A DNA stretch of 64,000 nt from Candidatus Hydrogenedentota bacterium (GCA_045863335.1 BTVY01000006.1:64001-128000); one strand, 5' to 3'. Numbered from the stretch's first letter, positions 35,097-53,076 are shown. Program-made: numbers and translations. Notes: a model not told the origin generated them from the sequence alone.

Positions 35097-37406
35097 ATGA
35101 CGGTTTTCAAGGCTTGGGCATCGTGGGCGCTCGGGATCTGTGTCGCCCTCGCGTGGGGGGTAAGCATCGCCCATGCACAAACTTATCCACCGCTGACGGT
35201 CGAGATCGGTCCCTACCATCCCCTGTTTCTTTTCCAGGCGCCGGATAGCGCCTCTGGCGACACGGAGGCCTATGCCCAGCAGATCGCAAGCGCGTGGGCC
35301 ACGTTGCCCAATGACCTGCGGCCGTATTCGGTTATGGCAGTGAACGTTTCCGGTCCGGATGCGGAAACCCGCCACCTTCGGTACACGAATCTCCTCAAGT
35401 CCCTTCAATCCTCCGAGATACCGGTCGCGATCCAGGTCGCCGATGAAAATCCTCGCAATATCTACCCCCTGGCGCAGGCCGAAGAATTGATTGCCCAGTT
35501 TACTGCGATCAAAGGAATTCAGGTTTCCAATCTCGCCTTTGACGATTACTCCACATTCGGCGGCGGTGACGACGTCGGTCTGCCCGCCAATGTCCGCTGG
35601 CTCAGCAGTGCGACCGATCTCGCCGCGCGCTACGGCCGCTTTATCGCCATCCGGCTGGACGGCACCGGCTGGCTGCACGTGTTGGCGAACGCGCAGTGCC
35701 GCCCCCTGCTGAACACCTTCCGCAATTGCAGCGCCTATGTCGTGCCGCTCGCCGGGCACGGCGCGGGCGCGACTATCGCGCAGCAAGGCGCGCTCATGGG
35801 ACTGTGGCTGGAAGGCGCGGTGGCGCAGTGGGGCGTTGCCCCGGACTCGGCTTGGTATGCGAATGCCGGATTGCTTGAGCCGGGCGTTTTCGGCGCCGCC
35901 TCGGACGGTCAGGGGATGCCTCCCTTATTGTATCGGGCCATGGTGCTGAACGGCACGATGGGCGGCGCCTGCGTGTACGCATTTCCCGAGGCCCGCGATC
36001 TTTGGGCCGGCGAACGCGTTCGGTATTGGGCCGAAGCCATCAAACCGATCCTATCACAGGTCATCCAGGGCGGCCTCATCGCCGACAAAGAATTCGTCGC
36101 GAAAAAAGCACGGGTCGCATACCAGATGGGCGTGTCGCGCACCCCTCAAGAATTCCAGCTCAACCTGCGCGACCTGGATGGCGTTCGCGACGAAGGCTTG
36201 ATGATCAAAGGCGCCTACGGCATGGAACGGCCGGGACAAATCGAGGAGCTGATCCCAAACTCGGGCCGCCACTACTGGGTGCCGATTATGTCGCCCTACG
36301 CGCCGCCCGAAGTGATGGGCGCCTTGGACCGCGTCGTCAAACCGGCCAGCATGCCTTCCGCGCAGAGTTGGACGGAACTGCTGGATCAGCATCTCGGCCC
36401 GGATGGTTCAGGTTCCGCCTTCATCGTGCGTGTGGGCCGGGGCGTCTTCGTCATGCATACGCGTGAAAGCCGCTACGAGGAACAGACGTTTCTTATCCCA
36501 TCGTTGCCCGCGCCCGTACGCGGTGTTCTCGCAAAGCGTAATGAATCGACCGTCACGCTCGAATGGCCTTTTCGCGAAGGCGACGTGTCCTACACGGTTT
36601 TCAAACGCATGTATCCGACGGGAGAGTTTGCTGAGGTCGCGAAAAACATCGACGAACGAAGCTGGACCGATCCCATCGCTGACCCCGCGCAGTCCGTTGC
36701 CTATGCGGTAACGGCGTTGACCAATGAGAAAGAGCCCTACGAAGGTACGGTCAACTTCGGCGACTACCTCGCGTTCAGCTTCGTCGAAAGCCGTATCGAC
36801 GAGGAAATTGTGCTGACCGACCTCGTCGCCCAGTCGCAGAGCCGCCCCCTGGAAGGCCCCCTCGAAATTCTGCCCAAGACGCAGGACTGGTGGCCCTCCT
36901 ACGATGGCGTGCCCGACGAACAGCGCGCCACCGCCGAGGCCATCGTGGCCCGCATCGAGCAATGGAACGAGGCCTTCGCGGCGGAAAACCTGGACGGCGT
37001 GATGGACCTCTACGGCACCGAATACCGCGATCCCCAATGGTGGCAGTTCCAATACGTCAAACGGGCTTACCAATGGTTCTTCGAACGTTACGGCGCCTGC
37101 AAAATGACCCGGCAACTTCGCCAATGGGATTTCACTGAGTTCGAGGCTAAAGGCGAGGTGCGCGCGCTCCTCTACTGCCGCTTCTCCGGATCCGCCATCA
37201 GCGATCCCACCGGCCGCTTCGCCGGCCAGACCGCCTGGTTCCCCCGAACCGAAACCGGGGAAATCTGGCTCACCTTCGCCAATCGCGAAGGCGAATGGCG
37301 CATCGAACGCAGCGATCCTGCCCTCCCCAACTTCGCCGACATCCTCAGCTTCTCCGCCGGCCCCTACGACTCGTTCCCCCCCGGCCCCGATATCTTCGGC
37401 CGGTAA
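35097..37406 (+). CDS. Secreted GH98-like module + FN3-like + C-terminal SnoaL/NTF2-like domain
   Basis: Signal peptide; WATLPNDLRPY, LAARYGRFI, GLWLEG..QWGVAPD.AWY, GGACVYAF resemble GH98 (from memory); FN3-like VTLEW...YAVTA; NTF2-like WNEAFAAENLDGVMDLY...WRI. Confidence 0.6.
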   Translation: MTVFKAWASWALGICVALAWGVSIAHAQTYPPLTVEIGPYHPLFLFQAPDSASGDTEAYAQQIASAWATLPNDLRPYSVMAVNVSGPDAETRHLRYTNLLKSLQSSEIPVAIQVADENPRNIYPLAQAEELIAQFTAIKGIQVSNLAFDDYSTFGGGDDVGLPANVRWLSSATDLAARYGRFIAIRLDGTGWLHVLANAQCRPLLNTFRNCSAYVVPLAGHGAGATIAQQGALMGLWLEGAVAQWGVAPDSAWYANAGLLEPGVFGAASDGQGMPPLLYRAMVLNGTMGGACVYAFPEARDLWAGERVRYWAEAIKPILSQVIQGGLIADKEFVAKKARVAYQMGVSRTPQEFQLNLRDLDGVRDEGLMIKGAYGMERPGQIEELIPNSGRHYWVPIMSPYAPPEVMGALDRVVKPASMPSAQSWTELLDQHLGPDGSGSAFIVRVGRGVFVMHTRESRYEEQTFLIPSLPAPVRGVLAKRNESTVTLEWPFREGDVSYTVFKRMYPTGEFAEVAKNIDERSWTDPIADPAQSVAYAVTALTNEKEPYEGTVNFGDYLAFSFVESRIDEEIVLTDLVAQSQSRPLEGPLEILPKTQDWWPSYDGVPDEQRATAEAIVARIEQWNEAFAAENLDGVMDLYGTEYRDPQWWQFQYVKRAYQWFFERYGACKMTRQLRQWDFTEFEAKGEVRALLYCRFSGSAISDPTGRFAGQTAWFPRTETGEIWLTFANREGEWRIERSDPALPNFADILSFSAGPYDSFPPGPDIFGR

Positions 37407-37410
37407 GAGT

Positions 37411-37433
37411 TGCAGGCTGGAAGCCTGCACCAC
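37411..37433 (-). repeat. GTGG-type REP
   Basis: Minus strand reads GTGG followed by TGCAGGC-ttcca-GCCTGCA. Confidence 0.7.
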
Positions 37434-37499
37434 AATGCTTCGCCTGTCCAGATTTTGAGGTAGGCGCGCGGCTCTTGAGCGGATCGGCTCTATACCGCC

Positions 37500-37539
37500 G
37501 GAAATGGAGGGAGCGGCGGGCCTTGGGAACCCGCCGCTC
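37500..37539 (-). terminator. Probable terminator hairpin of the ncRNA
   Basis: 10-bp GC stem gagcggcggg / cccgccgctc (37511-37539); only a weak U-tract follows. Confidence 0.55.
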
Positions 37540-37548
37540 AGTGCGGGG

Positions 37549-37743
37549 AGTGCCTGAAACCGTGTTCCGTGTATCTTGGCGCAAGAGGGTCACGGTCTTG
37601 AGCTACTACTCTGAAACCATTGGGCTGCGGTCGTTGGCCTCAGTCCGCTCAGTACGTCGTGTGGACCCTATATGGTCTGGGCTGCGGAATGACTTCACGG
37701 TGCGATGAAGTCTGACCGGATCCACACATTAGTTCCAGACACT
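37549..37743 (-). ncRNA. Candidate novel structured ncRNA (four-way junction, duplicated CCGCAGCCCA loops)
   Basis: Own promoter; the predicted +1 coincides with the first base of a 13-bp stem pairing the 5' and 3' ends; three internal arms; multiple G-U pairs that work only on the minus strand; downstream hairpin; no credible CDS. Confidence 0.75.
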
Positions 37744-37749
37744 GAGGCG

Positions 37750-37778
37750 AGTTTACCACAACATATAGGGGCTGTCAA
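37750..37778 (-). promoter_or_regulatory. sigma70-type promoter of the ncRNA
   Basis: TTGACA (37778-37773), 17-bp spacer, TAAACT (37755-37750). Confidence 0.85.
37756..37771. promoter_or_regulatory. NrdR-box-like operator 1 (fills the promoter spacer)
   Basis: ccaCaAcATaTaGggg versus consensus acaCwAtATaTwGtgt; all core positions match. Confidence 0.7.
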
Positions 37779-37851
37779 TACCCCTCGTCGGTTTTCTCAA
37801 AGAATTTTTCTCGCGAGAATGAGCCGTAAAATGTGCTCCGAAGCGCTATTG

Positions 37852-37867
37852 ACACTACAAGTTGGAT
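37852..37867. promoter_or_regulatory. NrdR-box-like operator 2
   Basis: acaCtAcAagTtGgat; one core mismatch. Confidence 0.5.
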
Positions 37868-37918
37868 ATTTTGACTGACGCTTCGCCCTTGTAGGTCATT
37901 ACCCCGGATTCGCCACCC

Positions 37919-37934
37919 AGCCTATATATAGTGG
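37919..37934. promoter_or_regulatory. NrdR-box-like operator 3
   Basis: agcCtAtATaTaGtgg; perfect core match. Confidence 0.7.
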
Positions 37935-38115
37935 TCTGTAGTGCGCTGAACTGGGAGCTTCGTTCCTCGTTGTACGCCCGTTTATCTGCGGAATGCTTAC
38001 CTTTCGGCGATTTTACGGGCAGTGGAAGTTTGGCACGCCACAACCTGTTACCTCTACGGCGCGTGATATTCTGGATTCAATGGAACGCAGGGAAAATTGT
38101 AACGGGAGGTGAGTT

Positions 38116-38445
38116 ATGGCATTGCACCACGCTGCGGAGGGTGAGGTTGTGGACCTCGCCACGTGGGATGAGGATACGGCCTCTGGAGGCACGAAGGCCA
38201 TTGTGAAAACGGACAATCTGGAACTGATTCGATTGACGCTGTCGCCGCAACGGGAAATGGACACCCACCAAGTCGCGGGGCCTTCCGTCATCCATTGCCT
38301 GGATGGCCGCATCGTGGTGGACGCCATGGGCAAATCCGAGGAACTGGGGCCGGGCCAACTCATGCATCTGGCGCCGAACGAGCCACACGCCGTCCGCGCC
38401 CGGGAGGAGTCCCACGCGCTGCTGACGGTAATGTTCATCCGGTAG
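38116..38445 (+). CDS. Cupin domain protein
   Basis: GGAGGT RBS; HQVAGP...HCLDG...PNEPHAV. Confidence 0.85.
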   Translation: MALHHAAEGEVVDLATWDEDTASGGTKAIVKTDNLELIRLTLSPQREMDTHQVAGPSVIHCLDGRIVVDAMGKSEELGPGQLMHLAPNEPHAVRAREESHALLTVMFIR

Positions 38446-38533: not shown

Positions 38534-38755
38534 ATGCCTCTCTTTGTATTTGCGTGTCAGGAATGCCACGCCGAAAACGAAATCCTGGTCCGGGGTGAGA
38601 CCGCCCCGGAATGCCCGTCCTGCGGGTCCAGAAAACTGACGAAACAAGCCAGCGCCTTCGCAGCGTTATCCGGGGGCGCTCGCCAGGCCGAGATGCCCGC
38701 AAGCTGCGGAGCAGGAAACTGCTGCCGCATGCCGGGCGGCTGCGGACTGAATTAG
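38534..38755 (+). CDS. FmdB-family zinc-ribbon protein
   Basis: MPLFVFACQEC...CPSCGS...SAF, Cys-rich tail; GGAG RBS. Confidence 0.85.
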   Translation: MPLFVFACQECHAENEILVRGETAPECPSCGSRKLTKQASAFAALSGGARQAEMPASCGAGNCCRMPGGCGLN

Positions 38756-52812: not shown

Positions 52813-53076
52813 AATACCTCCGCACGACCGTTGTGCTTTGCCTGACCGGGTTGGAAGTCCACAGCATGCCCTGCGGACCCCCTGATTTCAAACAACCCGC
52901 GAGGGTTTGAATCGAATTCCAGTCAGGGGCACTTCGCAGGCCGGAAGCATGCACCACAATTCTGGACACCACAATCTCGCAAGTTGCCTGACCATCCGCC
53001 GTGCCGTAGAATCATTGCGGGGGAAATCTTTCAACACACAAGACCCGCGATGGTCTTGACTACAGGAGTGCATGCC

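Follow-up and report, generated by a model that had tools for sequence, protein, structure and literature searches.

NrdR occurs in most bacteria and is under study as a target for antibacterials, the premise being that ribonucleotide reductases are all it controls; other direct targets are disputed, as single predicted boxes elsewhere look like noise. Here, we ask whether a set of NrdR-type boxes located far from any reductase gene could be such a target and, if so, what the boxes control. If it were, this dNTP-sensing repressor would control more than ribonucleotide reductase. We examined a 64,000-nucleotide stretch of DNA from a Candidatus Hydrogenedentota bacterium (hereafter, the window; G000:C6:64001-128000), in which an initial annotation had proposed three NrdR-box-like operators, one of them filling the promoter spacer of a non-coding RNA that would be derepressed when dNTP pools fall.

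Layout of the boxes, the promoter and the RNA

The three proposed boxes were found in place, with start-to-start spacings of 96 and 67 bp as previously noted, within a 709-bp intergenic gap that is flanked by a convergent 844-aa gene ending at 37406 and by a cupin gene. The local GC content is 0.47-0.49, versus 0.60 for the genome. In window coordinates, the features of the locus are:

37500..37743, minus strand: predicted structured non-coding RNA of ~240 nt, its 5' end inferred from the promoter and its 3' end from the hairpin and T-run
37512..37538, minus strand: probable terminator, a GC-rich hairpin of 9 bp, then CCCTCC and a T-run (37500-37511)
37755-37750, minus strand: -10 hexamer TAAACT, preceded by a TG (extended -10) from the outer bases of box 1
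37756-37771: box 1, CCACAACATATAGGGG, NrdR-type palindrome in the promoter spacer, centred at about -20 from the inferred start
37778-37773, minus strand: -35 hexamer TTGACA, invariant in 22 aligned sequences
37852-37867: box 2, ACACTACAAGTTGGAT, degenerate NrdR-type box, 96 bp from box 1, centred at about -116
37919-37934: box 3, AGCCTATATATAGTGG, NrdR-type box, 163 bp from box 1, centred at about -183
38116..38445, plus strand: cupin gene (PF07883, 32.7 bits)
38534..38755, plus strand: gene for a small Zn-ribbon protein of the FmdB type (PF09723, 38.8 bits)

No reductase gene lies in the window, in agreement with the initial annotation. Those of the same genome are located as follows, the nearest to box 1 being of the NrdD type:

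C6:151468-153846: NrdD-type reductase gene, outside the window, 49.7 kb from box 1
C32:38369-38980: R2-like reductase gene
C39:62345-66376: nrdA and nrdB

A promoter scan of positions 37200-38300 yielded only one sigma-70-like site, on the minus strand, with 10 of 12 matches, where shuffled sequences averaged 0.6 sites. Box 1 occupies 16 of the 17 bases of its spacer, as had been claimed, and the same exact placement in the promoter spacer was observed in all 39 examined loci that carry box 1.

Published NrdR boxes share the positions C4, A6, A8, T9, T11 and G13, with at least 63% A/T between C4 and G13 (available text of PMC13584703 and PMC12051234). Boxes 1 and 3 have all six of these bases and box 2 has five; its deviation, an A at T9, is described as a tolerated change in the available text of PMC13584703. 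Between C4 and G13, A or T takes up 7/8, 6/8 and 8/8 positions in boxes 1, 2 and 3, respectively, all above the published 63%. The spacing is a different matter. According to the available text of the same two sources (PMC13584703 and PMC12051234), published NrdRs need two boxes with linkers of 15-16 bp (or 24-27 bp), a box on its own is not bound by E. coli NrdR, and NrdR prefers an integer number of helical turns between box centres, namely three, or four at lower affinity. In the window, the linkers measure 80 and 51 bp, which bears out an earlier caveat about long spacing, and no close partner at 31-43 bp from box 1 or box 3 was found in the motif profile upstream or by eye on the transcribed side. 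At 10.5 bp per turn, the distances of 96, 67 and 163 bp correspond to ~9.1, ~6.4 and ~15.5 turns, the latter two being out of helical phase. Since a close pair and a reductase target were both looked for and neither was found, we file the sites, by their sequence, as NrdR-type boxes and not as canonical NrdR operators.

Judged by its sequence, the unit downstream of the promoter is a free-standing structured non-coding RNA, with a promoter and a terminator of its own, compensatory changes and variable neighbours. It folds with a minimum free energy of -98.2 kcal/mol (z = -3.7), which none of 200 shuffled sequences equalled. RNAalifold, applied to 25 sequences, returned a consensus of 40 pairs, and compensatory changes occur in 19; the consensus includes a closing helix that joins the 5' end of the RNA to the region just before the GC-rich terminal hairpin. 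The pairs of the terminator stem (columns 249-279) are kept in 25/25 sequences, with compensatory changes in L023 and L031, and T-runs follow the terminator hairpin in relatives as well. Several single-stranded segments are invariant, i.e., two CCGCAGCCC loops (also given as CCGCAGCCCA), a loop CCGUGACCCUCUUGCGCC, and ACACUCCCCGCA; these suggest protein binding or base-pairing by the RNA. Rfam gave no match at gathering score in the window (the best sub-threshold hit, with an E-value of 0.35, fell on unrelated DNA) and no match to the RNA in the loci of 11 relatives, so that the RNA would represent an undescribed class.

BLAST located the RNA, as a single copy, in 71 of the 135 genomes of the phylum, with a marked dependence on family: 45/53 in f1, 12/15 in f5, 6/14 in f3, 3/4 in f8 and 3/6 in f10, as opposed to 0/23 in f11 and 0/10 in f13. 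Among the matches listed, the named public records that hold the RNA and the boxes are labelled Candidatus Hydrogenedentota or Hydrogenedentales. A scan with a 16-base pattern was loose, its at least 120 matches being mostly due to chance, and a second motif of the RNA was present in 7/80 of these loci (L110-L189). Two other identities for the RNA were considered and rejected: 6S RNA, which is encoded at C46:60020-60205, and an origin from the nrdA leader, as alignment with the 340-nt nrdA 5' UTR scored 16 versus a shuffle mean of 17.6. In one locus of family f8, a tRNA gene (L233:1031-1103) follows on the same strand, ~60 nt after the 3' end of the RNA.

In three metatranscriptome runs from two studies, we observed short contigs that were confined to the RNA stretch, spanning 37543-37725 (depth 629), 37544-37769 (depth 60) and 37529-37795 (depth 6). 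The one neighbouring contig of the first run had a depth of 5 and was only about 92% identical. Given that contigs carry no strand, ends or level, and that a conserved RNA pools reads from several strains, these contigs provide a weak hint of an abundant, discrete RNA. As two contigs from RNA runs overshoot the inferred start by 26 and 52 nt on the upstream side, the start site is provisional. Run X3 covered the whole stretch evenly, an outcome that RNA and DNA would give alike, and the uncovered parts of the stretch in X16-X18 carry no meaning, as these are contigs.

Conservation of the boxes in relatives

A DNA search with positions 37400-38120 gave a match in 46 of 61 genomes and revealed a conserved block, 37502-37778, that ends exactly at the -35 hexamer. 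We aligned the window with 21 further loci, leaving out eight that had partial matches only. In this alignment, the -35, the entire spacer palindrome and the TA...T pattern of the -10 directly after the box are conserved (the latter also in other families), and the DNA beyond the -35 is unalignable between genera. In 26 of 27 loci (the window plus 26), box 1 is intact at every one of the six critical bases, the exception being L018 with five, and it is often a better palindrome in relatives than in the window, reaching up to 25 bits. Promoter spacers normally drift; that both half-sites are kept nevertheless speaks for the NrdR operator reading.

The upstream boxes were examined with a motif-score profile anchored on box 1, which displayed peaks at about +66, +96 and +162. 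A box with six of six critical bases occurs at +150 to +171 in 22/27 loci, 19 of which have it at +160 to +166. For a permutation control, we retained one locus per genus, i.e., 20 rows, dropping L007-L011, L015 and the short L035. None of 300 column-permuted palindromic motifs reached the height of the +162 peak anywhere in the 30-380 range, and the +66 and +96 peaks were reached by 3/300 and 12/300, respectively; relatedness of the loci inflates this positional test, while the intervening DNA is without alignable similarity. The site at +66 scores -0.2 bits in the window and is not counted as a box there.

Such boxes also occur in other families. In 12 loci from f2, f3, f5, f8, f9 and f10, box 1 scored 13.2-25.5 bits in 12/12 and was flanked directly, in each, by the TA of the -10 on one side and TGTCAA on the other. 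The position of box 2 (+94 to +97) held a box of 12.8-22.8 bits in 9/12 of these loci (f3, f5, f8 and f10), and further boxes occurred at +129 to +162. Because strong boxes stand at the same distance in other families, box 2 of the window is, on sequence comparison, best described as a decayed copy of an ancestral site, with its distance to box 1 the best-kept feature of the array. The earlier designation of box 2 as an operator thus holds for its position, but its own sequence is at background. The joint conservation of boxes and RNA, which had been put forward as a check, was observed across the order, with an intact box 1 in 26/27 loci and box 3 at +160 to +166 in 19/27. Overall, operator sequence and spacing have been kept across seven families, with the surrounding DNA completely diverged.

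NrdR and its motif in the lineage

The presence of nrdR in the genome, likewise proposed as a check, was confirmed by a single gene:

C10:131932-132378: nrdR, 149 aa, with a zinc ribbon and an ATP-cone

Its product scores 201.7 bits with TIGR00244 (cut-off 124.65) and 84.5 bits with PF03477, and the sequence contains the CxxC pairs, Asp15 and Arg17. The latter two residues contact C4 and G13 of the box, as described in the available text of a 2026 mutational study (PMC13584703). Across the genomes searched, nrdR was found in 59/61. No second NrdR-like gene was seen in G000, where the ATP-cone occurs only in nrdR and two reductases.

We derived the motif of the lineage from 73 upstream regions of relatives (30 of nrdR, 13 of nrdA-type and 30 of NrdD-type genes), with the RNA locus excluded. 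In a palindromic expectation-maximisation search, all five best seeds led to CCACAATATATTGTGG (16 bits). Its matches are placed as would be expected of NrdR boxes. The nrdR promoters have one box in the -35/-10 spacer and another just past the -10, with a partner site of at least 5 bits at 30-33 bp in 19/30 loci, and nrdA-type promoters carry a box of at least 17 bits over the -10 in 10/13 loci. For NrdD-type genes, a site of at least 9 bits within 400 nt upstream was found in only 2/30 loci (L080-L109), and none in G000. As the NrdD-type reductase is thus mostly without a box, the regulon of this lineage would be unusual, which weakens the assignment of the boxes to NrdR.

Some side observations concern these promoter regions. 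The widespread NrdD-type gene immediately follows nrdR in several relatives, where its control may come from the nrdR promoter. The nrdA-type upstream regions of L067-L076 contain a long conserved 5' UTR, with the -10 box 290-384 nt before the start of the ATP-cone coding sequence. The nrdR 5' regions (L036-L065) have, in many relatives, a conserved CTTGTGG that resembles a right half-box, ~30 bp past the second box; a similar TTGTAG or TTGTGG is present at the RNA locus ~28 bp before box 3.

Scored with the motif from nrd promoters, box 1 ranks 17th in 6.75 Mb with 17.0 bits and box 3 ranks 34th with 15.3 bits, but box 2, at 7.45 bits, is at the background of this genome, where about 1400 such sites are expected. 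The proposed scoring check therefore came out in favour of boxes 1 and 3 only. Under a zero-order 60%-GC model, 17 sites of at least 17.0 bits were observed versus 6.1 expected, and 34 of at least 15.3 bits versus 20.4 expected; 895 sites reach at least 8 bits, to be set beside the ~1400 expected at the score of box 2. The motif score alone leaves a substantial false-positive rate and is not decisive. When the 709-bp region was dinucleotide-shuffled 5000 times, 9 shuffles reached 17.0 bits and none contained two sites of at least 15.3 bits. Only the RNA locus and the region upstream of mraZ have, in this genome, two sites of at least 15 bits within 200 bp. We also counted mismatches to the consensus used in the initial annotation, from which boxes 1, 2 and 3 differ at 4, 5 and 3 positions. 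The genome holds 88 sites with 4 mismatches (78 expected) and 668 with 5 (715 expected), and only the class with at most 3 is enriched (18 sites versus 5.6 expected). Mismatch counting, which places boxes 1 and 2 in unenriched classes, was dropped as too crude, and the learned motif was used instead.

Elsewhere in G000, box pairs were observed before thyX (C26:57365 and 57396, 31 bp apart, 13.6 and 19.6 bits), mraZ (C33:35401 and 35442, 41 bp apart, 15.4 and 19.9 bits) and murC (C3:54399 and 54472, 73 bp apart, 14.9 and 18.2 bits), the genes being assigned by NCBIfam. This suggests a regulon that may reach thymidylate synthesis and perhaps cell division, and such boxes would be in keeping with a link between precursor supply and cell division. 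The best NrdR-type box of the genome (C10:91579, 23.7 bits) lies over a -10-like hexamer, and the gene downstream of it is a 589-aa ORF with weak similarity to amidases.

Proposed control of the RNA and its alternatives

We consider it rather probable that NrdR binds at this locus and represses the RNA, through an atypical, long-range operator layout. Positions 37750-37934 would then form the multi-operator control region of the RNA gene, which runs from 37743 to ~37500 on the minus strand. NrdR carrying ATP plus dATP would occupy box 1 and, with the spacer and the extended -10 overlapped, block RNA polymerase; when dATP is low relative to ATP, the RNA would be made, together with nrdR, nrdA and thyX. 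NrdR is described as a DNA-binding tetramer with ATP plus dATP and as non-binding oligomers with ATP alone (available text of PMC13584703 and PMC12051234). Because boxes 2 and 3 lie far upstream without a close partner, and because the distance of 94-98 bp is conserved, they would most likely help NrdR to stay on box 1 through looping or cooperation over a long range, the site at +163 doing so in this family. The distance from box 1 to box 2, about nine helical turns, is three times the usual 32 bp, and action of NrdR over such a length would be a geometry outside current structural models. We infer each of these elements, i.e., NrdR as the binder, the repression, the looping and the action of the RNA, from sequence comparison. 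The reading is weakened by the broken pair rule, by the background score of box 2 and by the fact that non-reductase boxes elsewhere have been judged false: those of E. coli and P. aeruginosa are mostly regarded as false positives in the available text of a 2025 preprint (10.1101/2025.03.28.645925). The original interpretation was thus supported in part: the presence of nrdR, the scores of boxes 1 and 3 and the conservation speak for it, but the score of box 2 and the cupin gene as a partner do not.

Other explanations of the same data carry less weight. The operators could be real but belong to a different dimeric regulator with NrdR-like specificity, in which case the RNA would not be tied to dNTP status. 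No nrd promoter of the lineage has the layout of 0, +96 and +163, the pairs there being spaced by 30-33 bp, and high-scoring boxes before mraZ, murC, flgC and the amidase-like gene form a set wider than expected for NrdR. We still consider this unlikely, as the RNA boxes agree, at all six published critical positions, with a motif trained on nrdR and nrdA promoters alone, nrdR is the one gene of its kind seen in G000, and the tandem boxes at thyX fit a dNTP regulon. It appears improbable that the sites, with NrdR bound, serve chiefly to buffer free NrdR, as a reservoir or architectural cluster, and hardly affect the RNA: several boxes do cluster here without canonical pairing, and L237 and L241 each have three boxes of more than 20 bits in a stretch of about 150 bp, but a box 1 that is always found in the promoter spacer (39 loci) occupies a repressor position and not a random one. 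Chance similarity of AT-rich, promoter-like sequence to the motif, or a small protein gene or 5' leader in place of the RNA, is highly improbable. The TATAT cores do resemble -10 elements, and many motif matches genome-wide overlap -10-like hexamers, yet the position of box 3 across 20 genera was matched by none of the 300 permuted motifs. A small protein gene was rejected because no ORF is conserved in frame, the sole recurrent one being open in 13/25 sequences, across segments with indels of 1-2 nt. A leader of the downstream gene was rejected because the downstream genes differ in family and orientation; those with Pfam hits are 8 convergent and 5 in the same direction, from unrelated families.

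The genes on the far side of the boxes offer a further alternative, in which box 1 controls the RNA and boxes 2 and 3 serve the promoter of a divergent operon (cupin, Zn-ribbon and membrane protein). The Zn-ribbon gene is the commonest right-hand neighbour (14/26 relatives' loci), it starts about 300-430 bp from box 1 in other genera, and in the nine relatives outside the genus of the window that have both this gene and a box at the box 3 position, its start lies 131-198 bp past that box. However, box 3 (at least 8 bits) is as frequent without this neighbour (8/12 loci) as with it (11/14), and it is present in L031, where the upstream NUDIX gene has the same direction as the RNA and no gene is hence divergent. 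Moreover, neither by eye nor by promoter scan did box 2 or box 3 yield a conserved -35/-10 pair, and the f8 and f10 loci have no recognisable gene within about 700 bp. We regard a divergent control region as quite unlikely. Of the two flanking units named in the initial annotation, the RNA is a member of the conserved module, but the cupin gene is not, with a homologue only in L007-L009, the genus of the window. Given that box 3 is as frequent without the Zn-ribbon gene and that the cupin gene is confined to one genus, the boxes are best assigned to the RNA: by sequence comparison, the unit that stays together is the RNA, its promoter and the upstream boxes. The cupin gene itself looks like a genus-specific insertion between the box array and the Zn-ribbon gene.

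The proposed repression of the RNA by NrdR has partial counterparts in known systems. Fur, with RyhB and PrrF, is a metabolite-sensing repressor that controls regulatory RNA. As in that case, the operator of a small-molecule-sensing repressor would here lie over the promoter of a free-standing RNA, which would be a candidate for a post-transcriptional extension of the regulon; unlike RyhB and PrrF, the RNA is ~240 nt long and highly structured, and it has no known targets or chaperone. Looping repressors bind operators at comparable distances, with lac O1-O3 at 92 bp and gal OE-OI at 113 bp. The locus resembles these in having a main operator at the promoter and auxiliary ones that keep conserved distances of about 90-180 bp from it, but looping is only inferred here, and we know of no description of looping by NrdR. 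With the nrdHIEF, nrdDG and nrdAB operators of E. coli and the nrdRJ and nrdAB operators of S. coelicolor, the boxes share a 16-bp partial palindrome, the six critical bases, an AT-rich core and the overlap with core promoter elements; they differ in their RNA-gene target, in the lack of a close partner and in the distances of 96 and 67 bp, which are themselves conserved.

More than two boxes across 100 bp or more of control region are also found at L. monocytogenes nrdAB, where 113 bp separate two box pairs, and at T. maritima nrdJ, with three boxes (available text of PMC13584703); unlike the present locus, these retain canonical close pairs and stand at reductase genes. Boxes away from reductase genes and without a canonical close pair were predicted earlier for Shewanella dnaA and Pseudomonas topA (available text of 10.1101/2025.03.28.645925). 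Each of these is a lone box at a protein gene, and in what that text covers they meet with wide doubt, whereas here three to five boxes hold their position across seven families of the order, with a non-coding RNA as the target. The locus is hence a non-reductase candidate with much stronger comparative support than single predicted boxes elsewhere. In the texts covered, full-text literature searches brought up no small or non-coding RNA under the control of NrdR, and supplements might list such predictions.

A broader reading, which we offer tentatively and hold to be rather doubtful, is that NrdR, commonly regarded as specific to reductases, has an ancient non-reductase target in Hydrogenedentota, a free-standing structured RNA held by a new geometry and relaying dNTP status. 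This geometry would combine a spacer-filling operator with auxiliary operators ~96 and 140-165 bp upstream, acting through looping or a higher-order NrdR assembly, and the RNA would be an output arm of dNTP status, e.g., by sequestering a protein or by pairing with mRNAs. Since heterologous NrdRs bind foreign boxes, the locus is open to a cheap in vitro test.

At the other end of the intergenic gap, just past the stop of the 844-aa gene, we observed a 25-nt, hairpin-forming repeat of REP-type appearance, GCAGGCTGGAAGCCTGCACCACAAT (37412-37436). A second copy lies in the window at 52936, and the genome contains 42 copies with at most 2 mismatches, with many more in relatives.
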